From an uncultured virus (IMG/VR IMGVR_UViG_2061766007_000763) (taxonomy: Duplodnaviria > Heunggongvirae > Uroviricota > Caudoviricetes): a DNA stretch of 20,000 bases. The stretch lies in IMG/VR virus record IMGVR_UViG_2061766007_000763; one strand, 5' to 3'. Both the position numbers and the translations under genes were made by a program. Below are positions 3,111 to 19,562 of this stretch, piece by piece. The notes below the pieces were generated by a model. It was not told the origin of the DNA. It worked only from the letters and a program-made list of their open reading frames with translations, and searched no databases. How positions within the stretch are numbered: position 1 is the first letter of the stretch; the number at the start of each line of letters is the position of its first letter.

Positions 3111-3385
3111 NNTTTGAGTTTGTTTATAGAAAGAACTTTCGGCCACGATTGCATTATATTACCATTTTCAGAACGATATGTTTGGGATATAAATTCTACT
3201 TTTAAATTTTGCCCTACATATAATTTGAAAAAATCTATATTCTCTTGCTCCCAGACTGTGAAAGCGTAAGTAGAACGACCATCTTTATAGTCTTTCGCAA
3301 TAAAACGTTGGTAAATACAACATTTGCCGTCTTTTTCCAATCGTCTTACGTTGTCTACTTCTATTACTTGGCAAAATACCTTCAT
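3110..3385 (-). CDS. DUF3127-like OB-fold protein, putative ssDNA-binding (stop in N gap)
   Basis: AFTVWEQENIDFFKLYVGQNLKVEFISQTYRSENG resembles the Bacteroidetes DUF3127 pattern; located in the replication module. Confidence 0.55.
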
Positions 3386-3392
3386 AATTGAA

Positions 3393-3671
3393 TCAATCGA
3401 CTCCTTCAAACACGTGGTAGTTTAGTTCACCATCATCAAGAGAGATAGTGCCTATATAACCATCATTCTTTATACTGCCGGAATCAAAGGCCCGGTTGGT
3501 GTCATAGAGACGGAAAATACGTTCCTCTTTCTCTTCCTGCTTTATATCAGCAAGAACAAAGACACATGGTTTACCTTGGACCATTTTCACTGAGAGAATC
3601 TTAGCTCCCTTTGGCATAAGGATAGACTCCTTGTCTATTATCCTTAGCCTGTACTGCATTACTTTCAACAT
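3393..3671 (-). CDS. Conserved phage hypothetical protein
   Basis: MPKGAKILSV...YIGTI...YHVFE pattern recalled from a widespread phage family. Confidence 0.75.
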   Translation of the reverse strand: MLKVMQYRLRIIDKESILMPKGAKILSVKMVQGKPCVFVLADIKQEEKEERIFRLYDTNRAFDSGSIKNDGYIGTISLDDGELNYHVFEGVD

Positions 3672-3699
3672 ACTCGTATATTTTAATTATTACAATCAA

Positions 3700-3857
3700 A
3701 AAACAAATGCGTAAACACAAACAACCTCGCAACCGGATTGGGAGCGAGGTTACAAGGTCATTTGTGCTTACGCAATTTTATGTGGTTGGATAGAATGGGT
3801 ATCTAAACCAGATAAAGCCGATATGTCTGTAATCCGCTCCCATTTGATTACACCGGC
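3700..3857 (-). promoter_or_regulatory. Structured 5' leader / putative attenuator of the replication operon
   Basis: Hairpin 3828-3852 and long hairpin 3708-3774 followed by UUUGUUUUUU; 8-nt complementarity between them (UGGGAGCG/CGCUCCCA). Confidence 0.55.
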
Positions 3858-3864
3858 AAAAATA
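3857..3864 (-). promoter_or_regulatory. Bacteroidetes -7 promoter element for the replication operon
   Basis: TATTTTTG with TTG about 20 nt upstream, just after a terminator. Confidence 0.6.
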
Positions 3865-3907
3865 TGTGATATATTTTATACTCGCAAGAAAACGAGCAAA
3901 TTTTTGC

Positions 3908-3948
3908 AAAAAAAATAAAGGGCCGTGACTCTCACGAGGTGGGCCCTT
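3908..3948 (-). terminator. Intrinsic terminator ending the tRNA/tmRNA transcript
   Basis: AAGGGCC...GGCCCTT stem followed by TATTTTTTTT on minus strand. Confidence 0.75.
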
Positions 3949-4118
3949 CTTGTTAACCTAAAAATCCAAAACCTTAGTTATGAAACAAAACTGCGTCTGT
4001 GGCTTGCCTAAACTTCACGTTCCGTAACAGCCTTAATGAGTTTATCGATGTCATACTGCCTGATGGCACCGGAGTTCCTCACTAAATCGCAGTTTACATT
4101 GTGCATATCAGTTGATAG

Positions 4119-4451
4119 TGGAGGTAGTGGGAGTCGAACCCACGTCCATACAATCTATCCTCGAAGCTTAAATTACAGGCTTTACTCATTTCTGAGATTG
4201 GGAGAAGTCAAACTTATAAGTTCTTCCTCCAGTTCCACCACTCTGTTATATGACACAGAGAAACAACTGTAACTATTATGTTCCTTCGTTAGTCACCAAC
4301 GAGGTGCCTCATGCTGCTGCACGAGTTGAGAAAGCAATCTCTGCACGGGGAGTCATATTAACTACCTTAGCATTTATTGTTTTGCTGTTTTAAGGCACAA
4401 CTGCCTGCCTGAGCTTCTTACTTTCAATCGCTGTCAAAGCCAAATACCCCC
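4119..4451 (-). ncRNA. ssrA: tmRNA (phage-encoded)
   Basis: 5' GGGGGTATTTGGCTTTGAC pairs with 3' TACCTCC-A including G3.U; T arm GTGGG-TTCGACT-CCCAC; tag frame 4371-4309 after ATAAAT reads AKVVNMTPRAEIAFSTRAAA*; followed by CTA, so CCA is not encoded. Confidence 0.93.
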
Positions 4452-4456
4452 TTAAC

Positions 4457-4678
4457 CTATTTTACCTGAGAAGAATCCTCTTCTTTCTTTTCCATCGGCG
4501 GGTCCCATATATCTATGGAACGTTTGCAACTGGAACAAGTAAAGAATGATACGATAGCGGGGTCATCCTCGGAATAAGCGTCGCTTACCTCGTTAGCGTT
4601 AGCGTCACTTCCCCATATAAGTTGACCGCCGCAAATCGGACATATAAATCCTTCAGGTTTGTCTTTTGGTTTACTCAT
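4457..4678 (-). CDS. Small zinc-ribbon protein
   Basis: 73 aa with CPIC and CSSC pairs; lies between tRNA-Met and tmRNA. Confidence 0.7.
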   Translation of the reverse strand: MSKPKDKPEGFICPICGGQLIWGSDANANEVSDAYSEDDPAIVSFFTCSSCKRSIDIWDPPMEKKEEDSSQVK

Positions 4679-4711
4679 ACGCTTATGTGTTTGTAATAAT
4701 CCAAATAGTAG

Positions 4712-4783
4712 TTGCGGGAGAGGGAGTCGAACCCCCGACCTTTGGGTTATGAACCCAACGCGCTACCACTGCGCTACCCCGCG
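4712..4783 (-). tRNA. tRNA-Met(CAT), initiator type
   Basis: CGCGGGG acceptor with C1:A72 mismatch; anticodon arm TTGGG-TTCATAA-CCCAA with three G-C pairs; T loop TTCGACT; followed by CTA. Confidence 0.92.
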
Positions 4784-4930
4784 GTATTGGGACGAATCCC
4801 ACGCCCCTGCCGTTACCTGTTTATTGGGGAGTTTGCAGAACGGCTAAACGCTCTCTCTTGGTTGCACCTCATTTTATCTTCTCAGACTCGTGAGGCTTCT
4901 GATATTTATAAAAAGGACAAAAAAGCATAA

Positions 4931-5001
4931 TGGTGTGCTGGCAGGATTCAAACCTGCGACCTCCGGTACTACCCGGTGCTCTCTCGCTGAGCTACAACAC
5001 A
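4931..5001 (-). pseudogene. Degenerate tRNA / tRNA-like element, anticodon unassignable
   Basis: TGTGTTG/CAGCACA acceptor, GCTC/GAGC D stem, GCAGG-TTTGAAT-CCTGC T arm, ends CCA; D loop lacks GG and anticodon arm is CCGG-GTAGTA-CCGG. Confidence 0.7.
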
Positions 5002-5021
5002 CTTAGAGACAGAACCTTTGC

Positions 5022-5231
5022 TTATCTCTTTTTCTTTGCTGAAGATGTAGTCTTTGTGCTGGCTACCTTCTTCATTGCCTTTGCTTGTGCCTCAAGGCCC
5101 TTAGCTTGCTGCTGGGCCACCTTGACCGCCCGGAACATACGAGCTTTGTCGGCCTTAATCTCTTGGTAACGCGCCATCGTGTAAGCGTCATCTTGCGCTT
5201 GCCACTTCTGCTGTTCACTTATTTTACTCAT
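5022..5231 (-). CDS. Small basic hypothetical protein
   Basis: 69 aa, Lys/Ala-rich, directly downstream of a canonical promoter. Confidence 0.75.
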   Translation of the reverse strand: MSKISEQQKWQAQDDAYTMARYQEIKADKARMFRAVKVAQQQAKGLEAQAKAMKKVASTKTTSSAKKKR

Positions 5232-5250
5232 ATTTCATTTTATTTGCAGG

Positions 5251-5282
5251 CAAAAATATGAAAGTATTTTCATCTATGCAAA
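5251..5282 (-). promoter_or_regulatory. Bacteroidetes sigma-70 promoter for the tRNA/tmRNA cluster
   Basis: TTTG (5282-5279), 20 nt spacer, TATTTTTG (5258-5251). Confidence 0.8.
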
Positions 5283-5409
5283 TTCCGGAGTAAAAATCAG
5301 TCTTTCAGCTTACCGGAACCACCACACATCCAAGTAATAACCTCGCTGAGAACGAAGAGAAATGATAATATACCCATATTGTTTATGTTTTAAGTTATAC
5401 AATTCGTTT

Positions 5410-5591
5410 TTATAATCCGAGAGCCGTTTTAGCTCTATTCCAGATGACGAGAAGACTACTTGCTTTTTCACCGTCATTTACGTAGTCTCCGTTNNNNNNN
5501 NNNNNNCCCACTCGTCAAAGGTAAGCATACCATCTGACATCTGCAATGCCTCAAGAGCATCGTTGTAAATTTCTTCGACTTTTTGTTCCAT
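5410..5591 (-). CDS. Hypothetical protein (joined across N gap)
   Basis: MEQKVEEIYNDALEALQMSDGMLTFDEW, gap, NGDYVNDGEKASSLLVIWNRAKTALGL*. Confidence 0.5.
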
Positions 5592-5596
5592 AGTTA

Positions 5597-6355
5597 TTAT
5601 GTAAATAGTTTCTTGATTTTTGAATACATAGCTCTCGCTCTCTGCTCGGTGTAAGGCATGCCAGATGCGGTAGTCTGACCAAGCTGGTTNNNNNNNNNNN
5701 NNNNNNNNNNNNNNNNNNNNNNNGATAACACCATGAGTTCTGGAGGTATAGGCATCGACATATTTCTTGAAGAAAATATTTGCCGGATTCCTGCGTGCCT
5801 CCTCAGCTTTCTTTTCTGCAGCCGCACTGAGCGCATTCCTGCTGATGGAATTGGGAGAACCGAGTTTGGATATCTTCCGTCCTTTTTTCGAGACATGGAA
5901 TCCATTCTCGGCAATATTCTTTTTAATGGCAGACATAGCTTCTTGGGTTCGGCCCTGTATGAGTTCCTTTTCGCATTGAGCGGCGAAACTAAAAGCAAAG
6001 ATAATCATTTCGTCAATAGCTTTCATGTGGGCAATGTCAAGGTCGAGGTTCATCTTAACTACCACAAGGCGAATTTTGCGAGGTTGGAGCTCGTCGTGCA
6101 AGAGCTTATTAACATCGAAAATGTTTCTGCCTAAGCGCGACAATTCCGATACAATAAGAGTGTCGCCCTCCTTGAGAATTTTAACAAGTTCAAAAAGTTT
6201 ACGTTTTTTGTAAGTAACAGAGCCACTTATTCCTTCGTCGCTTACAACAATATCCGCTTTCATATTGTGAAAGCGCAACCAGTCATCAACAGCGTTCCTT
6301 TGCTGCATAAAGGTCTGGTCTTGAGTCGAAACTCTTTCGTAAANNNNNNNNNNNN
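5597..6355 (-). CDS. Serine recombinase, resolvase/invertase family (start in N gap)
   Basis: In-frame upstream of the tracked ATG reads YERVSTQDQ (catalytic Ser); DEGISG, GDTLIVSELSRLGRN, AQCEKELIQGRT; C-terminus NQLGQTTASGMPY..KLFT* in the frame after the gap. Confidence 0.9.
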
Positions 6356-7332
6356 NNNNNNNNNNNNNNNNNNNNNNNNNNNNNNATCAAATATTTCGCA
6401 TCTGTATGTCCATTGTGATAAGCGTATAAAACGGTGTCATATCTCATATTGTATATGCTGCATAATTCCTTTAGGGAGATATTCTTGCCTTCGTGTTCTA
6501 AGAACAATCGACATGGAGATTTATATGTCTTTACTTTATAAGCTTGGTTTTTATATGTTTCAATAAGAGTACCCAAATCTTTTGTCTGCAAGTAGTACGC
6601 GCTATGAACTCTTTTATAGTTCATATTGTAAACTTCACACCATTCTTTTAATGTTTTTCTTTCTCCGTTATATTCTATAAAAACTTGATACTCTTTTTTC
6701 TTTTGGCGATTTTTGAATGTTCTTATAAGATACCCCATATTTTTATGACCACTATACCAAGCGTTTTGAACGTTTGCATAAATCATATCGTATTTTTCGC
6801 ACCATTGTTTAAGAGTCATTGTTTTTCCTCGATACGTAATATAGATATTGGTTCTCCTGTTATTGTTNNNNNNNNNNNNNNNNNNNNNNNNNNNNNNNNN
6901 NNNNNNNNTGTTATCAATCCTATCCAGACTCATTTTTTCAGGTTTTTCACCCATATCTGCGTAAAAATTCTCAAAAGAGTGAAGCCATCTATCGCAAACC
7001 TTTATACCTCTTCCGCCGTATCTTGGATAGTATNNNNNNNNNNNNNNNNTGGCCTTAATGCCGGCCCACACTCGGTGCGTTGCCGTTAAAGACATTCCAT
7101 GCTTAAATGTTTTTTCTTTGGTTAATTCCTTTCTCCAACATCCGCACGATTTATGGGGTGTCTTTTTGGATGTAAAATAGCTAACATTTCTCACAACGTG
7201 GTTTCCGCAATCACAAACGCAGTTATAACAATAAAGGCCCTGACTGTCTTTGTGAGAAAAACTCAATACGAGTAAACGCCCGATTTTCTTACCTATCAGG
7301 TTCTTGTTTGTTTTTAACTCGAATTTTTCCAT
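6350..7332 (-). CDS. Phage HNH homing-endonuclease-like protein with three C-terminal repeats (stop probably in N gap)
   Basis: [52 protein letters not shown]; repeats [36 protein letters not shown]. Confidence 0.88.
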
Positions 7333-7335
7333 AAT

Positions 7336-7472
7336 AAAAAACGAAGGGTAACTTTCAAGAAGCGGCCTCCTACCTCCGCGACTTTACTCATTACCCTTGT
7401 TATATTGCACTTGCTCAGTAGGAGTTGAGCATAGTTTATGCAAAAATAAAAAAACGTTTTTAATTATCCAAA
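7336..7472 (-). promoter_or_regulatory. Promoter plus structured leader of the HNH gene
   Basis: TTTG (7472-7469), 20 nt, TATTTTTG (7448-7441); hairpin 7412-7431; hairpin 7344-7398 followed by a U tract. Confidence 0.7.
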
Positions 7473-7517
7473 ATAAAGTATATTTGGCTGCACCGGTACG
7501 TATCACCGATACCGATG

Positions 7518-7525
7518 CAAAGATA
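7518..7525 (-). promoter_or_regulatory. Bacteroidetes -7 promoter element
   Basis: TATCTTTG with CTTG 20 nt upstream. Confidence 0.55.
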
Positions 7526-7553
7526 GTGATATGAATTATAATTCACAAGCAAA

Positions 7554-9359: not shown

Positions 9360-9927
9360 TTAAAAATCGAAATACTCCTTTGCTATATCAATAACTCGTC
9401 TTAAACCGTCATAGCGACCTTGTGTGTAAAAGGTCGGTGCGACATCCCATTCATGCTTTGCCAGCTCANNNNNNNNNNACATTGTCTGTATCGACTTCAT
9501 AATCGCCGGTCAAATCGTACTGATTATTTTCATGCCAAATATAACCGCATTCATGGTAGGTATAATAGACCTCCAAATCGGCATCCCAATCAAACTGGGC
9601 ACCCTCATAATAACCAGACTTGGTGTTAGCCTCGATTGCTATCTCTAAATCAATGCCACAAAATCTTAATGATTTTGACTTGCGTGCAAGGACCTTCCAA
9701 TCATCTCGCCATTCCTCGTCAACCGAGTGGTAGCCTTTTTCCTTTAAAAGTTCGATGCAGTTTTCCTGACTCCATTCGAAGTCAAATTCGGTCTGACTTT
9801 CGTCATACTGACCGATGAGGCTTTCATCAAGGTCATTATCCTTAATGGTTTCCTCATCATAATACTTGTTGAATCCGTAAGCAAATATCTTGCTCGAATT
9901 ACAACGGCTAAAATTTGGTGTACTCAT
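9360..9927 (-). CDS. Acidic hypothetical protein with SGYYEG motif (the part after the gap may be a different gene)
   Basis: ORF from 9927 to the gap at 9469-9478; open frame ELAKHEW..KEYFDF* after the gap. Confidence 0.7.
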
Positions 9928-9987
9928 AACTAATGAATTAAAGGTTGTGGGCCCCGAAAAACCATCACGTTTTCCGGAGTCAAATTG

Positions 9988-10631: not shown

Positions 10632-11087
10632 TTAGCCGTAGATAACCTCGCCGAAAACGATAATCTGCATGAGGTTGTCTGCATCGTTAAGGTCGAAGTC
10701 CACGCAATCGTTCTCTGCAAAATTGCTGAAACTTTTACGGCAATAAGGCTCCGTGCTTGAGGCAGCTTTTGCAAGGCCATTTTCTATGTCCTTCAGAGTG
10801 ATTGTATAATCCATCCGTTCACAATCCTCATCCCACATGTGCTCGATTTTGCCGTAATAATCGCCTGCTTCTTCAGCATACATATCGGAGACGGTAATCT
10901 TACCTCCGTTTAAGAGTATTTTTGCGAGCTTATCCTCAAAGCAGTCATTCTGAGCTGCAAAAGGCTTACCATCATAATCATCGTAGTTGTAGTCAACTGC
11001 GAAGATAGAACTGCCGTAAAAAGCGGTACTAAAGAGATTCACCAAATCTGCATGGGTAATCTCAGTGATTTTTGTTTCAATTTTCAT
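10632..11087 (-). CDS. Acidic hypothetical protein
   Basis: 151 aa ending DADNLMQIIVFGEVIYG; bounded by hairpin elements. Confidence 0.85.
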   Translation of the reverse strand: MKIETKITEITHADLVNLFSTAFYGSSIFAVDYNYDDYDGKPFAAQNDCFEDKLAKILLNGGKITVSDMYAEEAGDYYGKIEHMWDEDCERMDYTITLKDIENGLAKAASSTEPYCRKSFSNFAENDCVDFDLNDADNLMQIIVFGEVIYG

Positions 11088-11147: not shown

Positions 11148-11546
11148 TCAGTCGATAAACTCGGTAAAATCTATCTTTTCCGCAGGTATGTTTCCTCTCA
11201 TGGGTTTTTTGGAGAAAACATAGGTCACAACATTGGTCGTAACATTCTTGCTGCCATAGATGAAATACCCAGCATTTTGGAGAACTTCAAATGCAGTTTT
11301 CATTTCCTCAGTTCTGATTCTAATGGGGTCTGAATANNNNNNNNNNCATTTGCCATCTTTATAAAAGTTAATATATAATTGGTAAAAACCCGAAGTAGGT
11401 TTCAATTTTATATCGAAACCTCGCTCTTTAAAAACTTCATACCCCATGTTCTTTACGATTTCTTCGCAGATTGACTGCACTACTTCTTGTCTTACTTCGG
11501 TCGGCTGTACGTAATCGTTTGCCGGAATGTTGATTTTAATCTCCAT
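11148..11546 (-). CDS. Hypothetical protein
   Basis: 132 aa bounded by hairpin elements. Confidence 0.8.
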   Translation of the reverse strand: MEIKINIPANDYVQPTEVRQEVVQSICEEIVKNMGYEVFKERGFDIKLKPTSGFYQLYINFYKDGKXXXXYSDPIRIRTEEMKTAFEVLQNAGYFIYGSKNVTTNVVTYVFSKKPMRGNIPAEKIDFTEFID

Positions 11547-11610
11547 AACTAAACTGATTTAGGTTAAACAAAATTGGTGACGAAAGCGGAACCTAATCCG
11601 CTCTCGTTTT

Positions 11611-12234
11611 TTAAGACACGTAGTACATGAAATCTATTAGTGCTTTTTTGAGGTGCAATGAATCTGTTTTGTAATCACATTGACCAGCCAGCGGAACTCT
11701 TCTCGAAATATCCCATCTATCTCCATATCGCTCAATTACAAGGCTTCCGGCATAGAAATTATTCTTACCATATCTCACCACTATTGCATTGTAGCATGGA
11801 TAGTTTGATTCCAAAATCCTTTTTCCGTATTCAACTTTGATGCTGGTTATTGAAGTGAAAAACTTCTTGTAACGTTCATACTCAACCGAATGGGTCTCTT
11901 TATTCTCCCACGACTGAGCAAATTTTATCATTGGTTCAATGCACAAATTTAGGGCCTCTTCAGTCGTTTTGCAGGCATCTATCTTTGTAGCAAAATCTTC
12001 AACTTTTTTTATTCTCCTTTCAGCGATAGAAATCATTAGGTCCTCACTTTCCTTACTAAAGCAACCTTGATATTTATTCCTTCCTTCACCTTCAGAAAAG
12101 CAAACCCATCCGGGGTATGCAAAGTCAATCTTTTTACCAAACCACTTTTCGAGCTCTTTCAACTCTTCTTCGTTATACATGGTTTCTTCGCCCAAATCTT
12201 CGAGCCGATTGCACATCTCTTTTAATCTACACAT
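11611..12234 (-). CDS. Hypothetical protein
   Basis: 207 aa from ATG 12234; bounded by hairpin elements. Confidence 0.8.
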   Translation of the reverse strand: MCRLKEMCNRLEDLGEETMYNEEELKELEKWFGKKIDFAYPGWVCFSEGEGRNKYQGCFSKESEDLMISIAERRIKKVEDFATKIDACKTTEEALNLCIEPMIKFAQSWENKETHSVEYERYKKFFTSITSIKVEYGKRILESNYPCYNAIVVRYGKNNFYAGSLVIERYGDRWDISRRVPLAGQCDYKTDSLHLKKALIDFMYYVS

Positions 12235-12298
12235 AATCAATTTTATTTTAGGTTAACAAATTGTGAGTGCATCTTCGTTCAAAAAGATGCACCCGAAA

Positions 12299-12619
12299 TC
12301 ACTCTTTCCAATAGAACTTCTGAACGAGCCCGTGTTCATCTCCCGTTATGAGGGAATAAAGATTGGAATTTGGGTCCTCTTTTTCGGCCAGCCTTCTCCT
12401 CAGCACTTTTATAGAGTCTTGGCGGTCCAGCCATGCCTCCTCATAAAAGGACCAAATTATTACGTTATCATGCCATGATGCCATAGCCGGAGAATGGTCT
12501 ATGAAACCAAGGATTCTTTTGCGGTCCTTGGTGCCATTCCCATAGTCAAATACTTCTACAATCCAATCCTCCATGACGTTTTTGTCGTCAATCGGAGCAG
12601 GTTTCAAATTCTTGCTCAT
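12299..12619 (-). CDS. Hypothetical protein
   Basis: Start MSKNLK shortly after the previous stop. Confidence 0.75.
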   Translation of the reverse strand: MSKNLKPAPIDDKNVMEDWIVEVFDYGNGTKDRKRILGFIDHSPAMASWHDNVIIWSFYEEAWLDRQDSIKVLRRRLAEKEDPNSNLYSLITGDEHGLVQKFYWKE

Positions 12620-12630
12620 ATCGTTCAGTT

Positions 12631-12873
12631 TTAAAGTTTGAAAAATACATCTTCTTCGGTTCCGAAATCCAACCACCATTCTTCGGCGAGGTTGTTCTCT
12701 TCTCCGTACTCGTTCAAAAGGTCGCGAATTTTATCGCAAATTCCAGTACCGGTAGATGTCATGTTCAAAGGGCATCTCATTCGGTCTATCATATCCAATG
12801 CGACTTCTTCCTCCGCATCGGTCCACGTCTTTTTCTCTCTGACGTAGTCAATAGCTTTTTTCCAATGATTCAT
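12631..12873 (-). CDS. Acidic hypothetical protein
   Basis: 80 aa following a junction element. Confidence 0.8.
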   Translation of the reverse strand: MNHWKKAIDYVREKKTWTDAEEEVALDMIDRMRCPLNMTSTGTGICDKIRDLLNEYGEENNLAEEWWLDFGTEEDVFFKL

Positions 12874-12932
12874 AACTTTTTTTTAGGTTAAATTTGTTGC
12901 AGTGGCCCGGGCCCACCGAACCACTGCATTTT

Positions 12933-13613
12933 TCACTTCTTGTCTGCGTCCACGATTATCCAATCCATTCCTTCGTCATAAAGGAGAGGCATAATTAGAG
13001 CCCAACTTCCGTCCTCGCATTCGGTCATTGCTGCATGGTTGTAATCCTCAAAACTGATTTTGAAGTTGTTTTTCATCTCCAAGAAACCGCAGAACTTCTT
13101 GAAGTTGTCAAGGTCAAAATAGCACTGGTTTCCAATTCTGATAACGCAGCGCGGAACGTATCCCTTGCCAGCCGCTTTCTTGCGTGCCTTGTGCTCGCGT
13201 AAAGCGTCATACACTTTCTCGGTGTCAACCTCGACCTCATTCTTGTTGTTCTTTGGCTTGCAGACTTTGTAATTCGGATAACGGCCATCAACTGACTCTC
13301 CGAATTTGTCGATGATTTTGCCTTCAAGTTCAGGCTCATAATCGGACTTCAAACATACGAGTATGTGTCCGTCACTTGCAACGTCATATCCATTATCATG
13401 GAAAACGCCGTTCATGACGGGGCGCAAAGCATCATCGGAAACCCAATCATAAATATTGAACTTACCGACACTACGCGGAGTCTCCAAAAAGATGACTCGG
13501 TTTATGCAAGCTCTAACGAGCTCTGCATTCTTCTTCAGAATATCGGCATTCTCCTCGCTGGGATTCAACCAATTCAGTGCACTACGCAATTCGCTTAAAG
13601 ATTCATTCTTCAT
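12933..13613 (-). CDS. Protein with a DNA polymerase III beta-clamp-like domain
   Basis: SDDALRPVMNGVF..VASDGHIL..VDGRYPNY resembles the DnaN central-domain motifs RP.L.G, VATDGHRL, G.YP.Y; 226 aa, shorter than a full clamp. Confidence 0.65.
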   Translation of the reverse strand: MKNESLSELRSALNWLNPSEENADILKKNAELVRACINRVIFLETPRSVGKFNIYDWVSDDALRPVMNGVFHDNGYDVASDGHILVCLKSDYEPELEGKIIDKFGESVDGRYPNYKVCKPKNNKNEVEVDTEKVYDALREHKARKKAAGKGYVPRCVIRIGNQCYFDLDNFKKFCGFLEMKNNFKISFEDYNHAAMTECEDGSWALIMPLLYDEGMDWIIVDADKK

Positions 13614-13683
13614 AACTACTTTAATTTTAAGTTAAACAATAAGTTGTGATTTGAGGGCCGTTCAAAGCCCTCAAACCTTTGCA

Positions 13684-16182: not shown

Positions 16183-16248
16183 AATCTCAAATTGTTTTAG
16201 TGAATAAATAATTGTGAGCGAATGCCGGCCAAAGCATTCGCCCTATGT

Positions 16249-19281: not shown

Positions 19282-19499
19282 CTATAATTTCGGGTCATTG
19301 ACTATGTCCGAAATTTCACGCTCCAAAGAGAGGTAGTATTCGAGGCCGGAATTTAGGTCCAATCCTTCAGCTCTCTTTTTGCGCAGTTTTCTTATAGCTC
19401 GTTCGGTCGCGTTAAAACGGCCACAAATCGGCCATTTGNNNNNNNNNNNNNNNNNNNNNNTCGGATGCTCATTTCGTTCACGTTTTTAGGTTCATCCAT
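19282..19499 (-). CDS. Hypothetical protein (joined across N gap)
   Basis: MDEPKNVNEMSIR, gap, KWPICGRFNATERAIRKL..VNDPKL*. Confidence 0.65.
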
Positions 19500-19562
19500 G
19501 TCGTTCGTTTTTTAGGTTAATTTGTGAGCATGGAACCGGTCAGGATTCCATGCCCTATTTGT

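Follow-up and report, generated by a model that had tools for sequence, protein, structure and literature searches.

Can the transcript of a phage tRNA/tmRNA unit end in an RNA that is antisense to the phage's own translation start sites? An earlier note proposed this for the interval between a tmRNA gene and its terminator in an uncultured phage fragment. We analyzed this interval within the window, a stretch of 20,000 nucleotides (IMG/VR record IMGVR_UViG_2061766007_000763). The fragment was detected in bovine, sheep, and goat gut metagenomes, and parts of positions 3113-5493 are present in at least 20 runs from 13 studies; the two runs with the largest share of this interval come from what may be the source sample. 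Nearly all open reading frames (ORFs) of the window are carried by the minus strand, and 25 stretches are masked with N. No Shine-Dalgarno sequences were seen upstream of the ATGs of the minus-strand genes. Together with promoters of the Bacteroidota type, this absence suggests that the host of the phage belongs to the Bacteroidota.

The phage belongs to a lineage without a close isolate relative. A DNA query with positions 3660-4700 gave no match in the isolate phage collection, where the best DnaB match was 31% identical. IMG/VR queries with an exact 38-mer, the 73-aa protein, the DnaB protein, and a 21-mer of the neighbouring leader detected no relatives, and the DUF7352 protein detected only two unrelated contigs (L001 and L002), which are tRNA-free and differ in content. 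Two sequence patterns gave no match in GTDB genomes. Five near-identical IMG/VR contigs (L005-L009) matched a degenerate 21-mer of the element described below; they were rejected as chance matches because the 21-mer lies inside an unrelated, GC-richer coding region without tRNAs. Comparisons were therefore made with two metagenome contigs identified by a DnaB scan (L003 and L004; 92% amino-acid identity) and with variant sets X3 and X4, contigs of two further DNA runs that are about 96% identical over 3113-4451.

The tRNA/tmRNA unit and its trailer

The features of the unit are listed below in the order of the minus strand.

5251..5282, minus strand: putative promoter of the Bacteroidota sigma-ABfr type, TTTG-N20-TATTTTTG (pattern match)
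4933..5001, minus strand: tRNA with an unusual anticodon loop (ARAGORN tRNA-???, anticodon 'ag'; Rfam 49.1 bits)
4712..4783, minus strand: tRNA-Met (CAT) (ARAGORN and Rfam), also present in L003 and L004
4116..4451, minus strand: tmRNA, the variable cargo of the unit (ARAGORN; Rfam RF00023, 83.1 bits)
3991..4115, minus strand: variable non-coding part of the trailer, 88% identical in L003 and missing from L004
3949..3990, minus strand: mirror (anti-start-site) element, reverse complement of TTGTTAACCTAAAA...TTAGTTATGAAACAAAA (sequence and conservation)
3921..3948, minus strand: intrinsic terminator hairpin (core 3937-3923, extended in the fold), followed by U8
3909..3920, minus strand: terminator U-tract TTTATTTTTTTT (sequence)

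The unit consists of the promoter, a 69-aa ORF, two tRNAs, a 73-aa ORF, the tmRNA, the trailer, and the terminator. The promoter follows the sigma-ABfr consensus as quoted in PMC7366714, and it recurs at the syntenic place in L003 (7213) and L004 (2410). The trailer extends about 165 nt 3' of the tmRNA on the minus strand and is followed by the hairpin 3948-3921, which is identical at 28/28 bases in L003 and 27/28 in L004. No other terminator-like site was found between 5251-5282 and 3921-3948. A second -7 box (TATTTTTG at 3857-3864) is located past the terminator and heads the next unit. From the positions of this promoter and terminator, the mirror, which directly precedes a canonical terminator, is expected to be transcribed with the tRNA/tmRNA unit.

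Several other candidates in the trailer were rejected. A promoter belonging to the mirror itself, matching TAnnTTTG with one mismatch over 3986-3993 on the minus strand, loses its TA in L004; perfect TAnnTTTG matches number 23 compared with 17.4 expected, and near-matches are common. The 32-aa minus-strand ORF 4008-4106 was dismissed because of a frameshift in X4, a missing ATG in L003, and substitutions that show no third-position bias. The whole trailer folded no better than shuffled sequences (z = -1.39), and a special structure of the entire trailer was dismissed. No Rfam family was found in 3908-4117, either at the gathering threshold or at E values up to 1. RNA contigs of two runs (X17 and X19), which convey neither strand nor transcript ends, contained tmRNA and tRNA parts only, mostly those of other organisms; most differ from the window sequence, and none covered 3908-4117.

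The relatives keep the same order of promoter, tRNAs, cargo, mirror, and terminator. The tRNA at 4933-5001 is kept in L003. The tmRNA is missing from both, and its place is taken by an HNH endonuclease gene in L004 and by tRNA-like remnants in L003. As L003 and L004 keep the mirror without a tmRNA, the link to the tmRNA is incidental. The origin of the RNA in a tRNA/tmRNA transcript, as the earlier note had it, is supported by the position of the mirror within the unit before the terminator.

Some observations on the contents of the unit are recorded here. ARAGORN could not name the tRNA at 4933-5001 or its counterpart at L003 7487-7556, giving a two-letter 'anticodon' ag at position 32 (Rfam 49-50 bits). 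Between tRNA-Met and the trailer, L003 7780-7990 contains several pieces resembling T-arm and acceptor sequences, one with matching acceptor ends, and none was called by ARAGORN or Rfam. The tmRNA at 4116-4451, missing from both relatives, has the ARAGORN tag AKVVNMTPRAEIAFSTRAAA. A 351-nt contig from two rumen metatranscriptome runs is identical to the window over 4118-4241 and differs in the middle and 5' part, indicating that a related tmRNA, of the host or of another phage, is expressed; the phage copy may be a mosaic. In X3 and X4, 222 other letters take the place of the zinc-ribbon-like 73-aa ORF (4457-4678) that separates tRNA-Met from the tmRNA.

The mirror element and the start-region modules

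Positions 3949-3990 contain an inverted copy of the start-region module TTGTTAACCTAAAA ... TTAGTTATG, which is found ahead of some of the minus-strand genes. Forward modules precede about 20 minus-strand genes and consist of a GC-rich hairpin, usually CACAA, a box, about 10 nt, and the ATG. The hairpin loop often starts with TTTG, and the box is TTATTCACTAAAA or TTGTTTAACCTAAA. The plus strand of 3950-3985 copies the second box type (TTGTTTAACCTAAA) through the ATG in inverted orientation, and our minus-strand reading of 3985-3950, between the tmRNA and the terminator, was identical to the string given in the earlier note. The match is real, arising from homology between the module and its inverted copy and not from AT-richness alone. 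The mirror also contains a spacer that is common to no forward module. In the predicted fold of the conserved 80 nt, a weak AU hairpin leaves CAUAAC unpaired and is followed by the terminator; as predicted, this is an sRNA-like shape.

The array box has no consistent match to the sigma-ABfr -7 element and fails the TAnnTTTG consensus, and it was rejected as such an element. Hairpins before the array modules (for example, 12270-12300, 13655-13680, and 16215-16245) often have loops starting with TTTG, located 16-23 nt before a TATTTATT-like stretch, and this arrangement may represent a compact terminator-plus-promoter design. In L003 (1250-1400), the start region of a gene of the 12873 type is joined to the middle of a gene of the 11087 type (window 10632-11087), out of frame with the ATG. 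L003 does not contain the genes lying between these two types, which indicates array shuffling with the junction just after the module.

The strand on which the mirror would function was examined from its neighbourhood and from the ORF on the plus strand. A conserved block adjacent to the terminator (3690-3856) folds with -69 kcal/mol on the minus strand versus -48 kcal/mol on the plus strand, and its G-U pairs and substitutions keep pairing on the minus strand only. Similarly, the single L003 substitution in the closing stem of the mirror keeps the minus-strand pair as U-G. The block itself appears to be a structured leader RNA (3690-3856, minus strand; L003 8190-8420; L004 3590-3815), bounded by the -7 box at 3857-3864 on one side and by the DUF7352 gene (start 3671) on the other, and it had no Rfam match. 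It forms a hairpin of about 27 bp with G-U pairs consistent with the minus strand only. A likely covarying loop-loop contact changes from GGGAG/CUCCC in the window to GGGCA/UGCCC in L003 and L004, and substitutions of X3 fall at the same loop-loop positions.

It is highly improbable that the plus strand serves as an active start region or promoter, giving a micropeptide or an RNA complementary to the tRNA/tmRNA cargo. In favor of such a function, the order of hairpin, motif, and ATG copies the array layout, A's are located at -9 to -12 before the ATG, and the window, L003, and L004 share the first four codons (MKQN). Against it, the ORF at 3980-4027 (MKQNCVCGLPKLHVP) changes from 15 aa in the window to 18 aa in L003, where the stop is lost, to an unrelated sequence after codon 4 in L004, and to 3 codons in X3, the CACAA box and TTTG-loop hairpin of the forward modules are absent from the mirror copy, the module lies in a 5'UTR and not at a promoter in L003 and L004, and no plus-strand genes are nearby. 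Because this ORF is not conserved, the 15-aa peptide that the earlier note offered as its alternative was rejected as a small protein gene.

Predicted pairing with start regions

The pairings proposed earlier all exist as exact complementary blocks: 14 nt at 12246-12259, 10 and 9 nt at 11558-11567 and 11544-11552, and 12 and 9 nt at 12880-12891 and 12869-12877. Further exact blocks were found at 19509-19520 (12 nt) and at 9924-9933 and 13609-13618 (10 nt each). With up to three mismatches, the 14-mer occurs 16 times compared with 3.79 expected, and none of 200 shuffled sequences reached 16.

We calculated duplex energies of the 36-nt core with 31 start regions, 35 having been chosen and four dropped for masked N. 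The best duplex had -22.8 kcal/mol, a value reached by 3 of 500 dinucleotide shuffles, and the sum of the top five was -98.4 kcal/mol, reached by none of the 500. Pairing thus exceeds the shuffled controls, which addresses the chance matching that the earlier note asked to have excluded. When natural minus-strand 36-mers of the window were used instead, 54/500 reached the best energy and 18/500 the top-five sum, and the pairing energies are therefore not extreme. A level of -17 kcal/mol or better was attained by six of the 31 start regions versus 3% of 300 internal segments. The proposal that many array genes are targeted is overstated, since only these six window start sites pair strongly.

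Strong pairing was limited to the TAACCTAAA subclass; the commoner TTATTCAC class does not pair well. Once internal structure was subtracted, members of the TAACCTAAA subclass had a net cofold gain of -12 to -22 kcal/mol, compared with -3 to -12 kcal/mol for six other starts. The predicted duplexes comprise 23-32 pairs with -19 to -24 kcal/mol and span from about -27 to between +5 and +14. The seed itself is partly paired in the prediction (mean unpaired probability 0.52). On these calculations, the mirror is a real element that is specific to one subclass of start sites. The predicted targets in the window are as follows.

11541..11572, minus strand: predicted target at the 132-aa gene (start 11546); duplex -22.8 to -23.6 kcal/mol, -26 to +6; net cofold -19.9
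12220..12260, minus strand: predicted target at the 207-aa gene (start 12234); the only other exact 14-mer
13607..13640, minus strand: predicted target at the 226-aa gene (start 13613); duplex and cofold
12865..12892, minus strand: predicted target at the 80-aa gene (start 12873); exact blocks, duplex and cofold
9918..9947, minus strand: predicted target at the 153-aa gene (start 9927); exact block and duplex
19495..19525, minus strand: predicted target at a start region with AAATTAACCTAAAAAA (start 19501); exact block and cofold

In the relatives, the best predicted target was not an array gene but the start site of a serine recombinase gene.

5478..6400, minus strand: serine recombinase gene (Pfam Resolvase PF00239); its start site is masked in the window (N at 6344-6385)

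PF00239 was detected with E = 4.8e-18 in the window and 2.8e-23 in L004. The recombinase start site ranked first for the mirror of its own contig, with -22.6 kcal/mol in L003 (1/42) and -19.5 kcal/mol in L004 (1/15). The full 42-nt mirror paired with this start at -23.1 kcal/mol in both, forming 29-30 pairs from about -27 to between +5 and +10. In L003, the similarity between the recombinase leader and the mirror extends through the spacer. The spacer differs between the L003 and L004 recombinase leaders, and a strict one-to-one partnership of mirror and target is thus not supported.

The arrangement upstream of the recombinase also bears on what the module is. In L003 and L004, a TTTG/CTTG-N20-TAnnTTTG promoter and a hairpin are followed by TTGTTTAACCTATAA...AGTTATG, the start of the recombinase. 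The box is located about 40 nt downstream of this promoter, within the 5'UTR. Thus, for at least one gene (the recombinase of L003 and L004), the module lies in the predicted mRNA leader, which makes it less likely that the box is a promoter and renders antisense masking feasible. Should array genes instead be transcribed from promoters within their modules, their mRNAs would lack much of the target sequence. The AAAA of the module is located at about -11 to -15, and start sites of Bacteroidota are reported to be A-enriched at those positions in PMC7366714. As a separate observation, a 348-aa gene without a known family and with its own promoter match (7441-7472) is inserted in the window between the promoter hairpin of the recombinase and the recombinase gene (5478-6400 and 6286-7548); this insertion is not present in L003 (4700-5560) or L004 (990-1845).

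Conservation of the mirror and alternative readings

The mirror is strongly conserved in the related contigs, conservation being one of the checks that the earlier note proposed, with 41/42 bases identical in L004 and 39/42 in L003. Terminator and mirror together are identical to L004 at 68/70 positions, compared with 203/249 for the leader and promoter (leader 82%, promoter region 80%) and 186/279 (67%) for the adjacent DUF7352 coding sequence. By Fisher's test, the excess over the non-coding flank (p = 5e-4) and over the coding sequence (p = 9e-9) was significant in the comparison with L004; it was not significant for the closer L003 (p = 0.11). X3 has no differences within 3902-3984 versus 45 over 3113-4273. 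X4, for which 14 of 44 variants were listed and which adds little, has a one-base deletion in the A-run at 3960.

The mirror has been kept despite replacement of the upstream cargo, and window sequence homologous to L004 extends no farther than 3990, ten bases past the ATG of the mirror. The mirror is better conserved than any single target leader. Because the shared core does not vary among the window, L003, and L004, they offered no informative changes in seed and target. The strong conservation could also reflect a recently exchanged mosaic block.

An alternative is that the mirror is a relic at the DNA level, namely a PeSL-type cassette that was once inserted in the other orientation and now marks a recombination junction beside variable cargo, without an RNA function. 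PeSL cassettes of T4-type phages are described as mediating shuffling of this kind (PMC2839356 and PMC4122927), and in the window the repetition of a stem-loop and box between small variable genes was found for the forward modules, although not for the inverted copy. These hairpin-plus-motif modules recur before about 20 small genes, the rearrangement junction of L003 (12873-type start to 11087-type gene) lies at or just after a module, the window gene is inserted directly after the recombinase promoter hairpin, and the L004 homology ends 10 nt past the ATG of the mirror. However, a relic would be expected to decay, yet the mirror is the best-conserved stretch of the region (41/42 with L004 versus 67% for the coding sequence). 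The conserved part moreover includes the spacer that no forward module shares, which leaves gene conversion from other copies inadequate as an explanation. We consider a relic without function unlikely.

The proximity of the recombinase raises the question of whether the mirror is a crossover or binding site of this enzyme. The recombinase start and the mirror would then be inverted repeats flanking a segment of 2.4-3.3 kb, comprising the recombinase gene and the tRNA unit, that is inverted in a Hin/Gin-like manner, or they would be bound for autoregulation. The window, L003, and L004 each carry a gene with a Resolvase domain about 1.5-2.4 kb upstream, and in the two relatives no forward copy resembles the mirror more closely than the start region of this gene. 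The mirror has partial dyad symmetry in the predicted fold, and its spacer may resemble a half-site of Hin/Gin-type sites. An adjacent serine recombinase is thus present, but inverted sites of equal length and geometry were not found: the repeats differ by indels (1, 1, 3, and 1 nt in L003, and a 6-nt length difference in L004), and L003 has a 1-nt deletion in the would-be core. Such indels count against a recombination site, because sites of equal geometry do not tolerate them, whereas RNA pairing does. Only one orientation was found in 5/5 assemblies (window, L003, L004, X3, and X4), with no strand-change joint, contigs being prone to drop minority forms, and Pfam detected no HTH domain in the recombinase. 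A site for the recombinase is accordingly very improbable.

A candidate antisense RNA and its relation to known systems

We tentatively favor a 3'-trailer antisense RNA that would block the start sites of the TAACCTAAA subclass, a reading that we hold to be a serious possibility rather than a probability. In this reading, the mirror (3949-3990), the hairpin, and the U-tract would form the conserved 3' end of a tRNA operon transcript. The host-type promoter at 5251-5282 would drive the small ORF, two tRNAs, and variable cargo, and the transcript would end at the intrinsic terminator 3921-3948. Its last approximately 80 nt would be freed when the tRNA and tmRNA are cut out, or would remain as a 3'UTR. 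This tail, the reverse complement of a phage translation-initiation region, would pair with start sites of the TAACCTAAA subclass from about -27 to between +6 and +14, the best paired site in the relatives being that of the serine recombinase gene. The duplex would extend over the AUG and the A-rich block at -11 to -15. Because Shine-Dalgarno-less ribosomes of Bacteroidota use both, initiation would be blocked, either in trans or, on read-through transcripts, in cis. This model presumes that the RNA is made, that its tail is released as a separate molecule, that the tail pairs with its targets in vivo, and that pairing represses them.

Two properties of sRNAs derived from 3' ends were found here. 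The candidate shares the terminator of its parent transcript (3921-3948 with U8), which is kept in L003 and L004, and its seed complementarity is conserved (41/42 and 39/42) and exceeds chance (0/500 shuffles, 18/500 natural 36-mers).

The closest parallel for its origin is 3'ETS-leuZ of the E. coli glyW-cysT-leuZ tRNA operon, which is described as sponging RyhB and RybB, both sRNAs (PMC9514646, citing Lalaouna et al. 2015). Both would be base-pairing RNAs that derive from a tRNA-type transcript, namely from its 3' external transcribed spacer, and end at the operon terminator. In contrast to this sponge, the candidate is predicted to pair with mRNA start sites belonging to the phage, and in L004 it would occupy the 3'UTR of a protein gene and not a tRNA spacer.

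With respect to its action, the candidate resembles the c4 RNA of P1 and P7 (PMC5320573), a processed phage RNA whose exposed stretches occlude the ribosome-binding region of a phage gene on the same strand, as is proposed here. However, the mirror is related to c4 neither in sequence nor in structure, and no match to the Rfam C4 covariance model was found in 3908-4117. According to PMC5320573, RNase P excises c4 RNA, which contains three stem-loops; the host considered here would initiate translation without Shine-Dalgarno pairing.

The forward modules resemble the PeSL cassettes of T4-type phages in that they repeat through a plastic array and coincide with its junctions (PMC2839356 and PMC4122927). 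PeSLs are described there as containing a strong sigma-70-like early promoter, whereas in the sole case with a placeable promoter here the box is in the transcribed leader. Unlike a cassette between genes, the mirror is a single inverted copy.

Among sRNAs of the same inferred phylum, the 3'UTR-derived and intergenic base-pairing sRNAs of Bacteroides thetaiotaomicron such as GibS (PMC7366714) likewise belong to a host that does not use Shine-Dalgarno sequences and combine a single-stranded seed with an intrinsic terminator, and 21 UTR-derived sRNA candidates are reported there. GibS-type sRNAs are chromosomal and validated by Northern blotting, whereas the mirror is phage-borne, putative, and mirrors the start sites of the phage itself. 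A literature search, which was not exhaustive, found no phage antisense RNA directed against start sites in Bacteroides among the matches listed.

More broadly, phages of Shine-Dalgarno-less Bacteroidota might build antisense regulators by placing an inverted copy of their own start site before an operon terminator, so that expression of the tRNA unit silences the recombinase and a handful of array genes as an RNA timing switch. We regard this generalization as possible but doubtful. Even with an inert mirror, the locus would remain a record of module-based gene shuffling in a lineage of uncultured rumen phages. Translation control without Shine-Dalgarno pairing is poorly understood in Bacteroidota and their phages. 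If the antisense reading is true, a phage RNA covering the AUG and the A-rich start region would offer a simple mechanism and a compact off-switch for phage or Bacteroides genes; the trailers of phage tRNA operons would gain a function, and tRNA expression would be tied to control of the recombinase.
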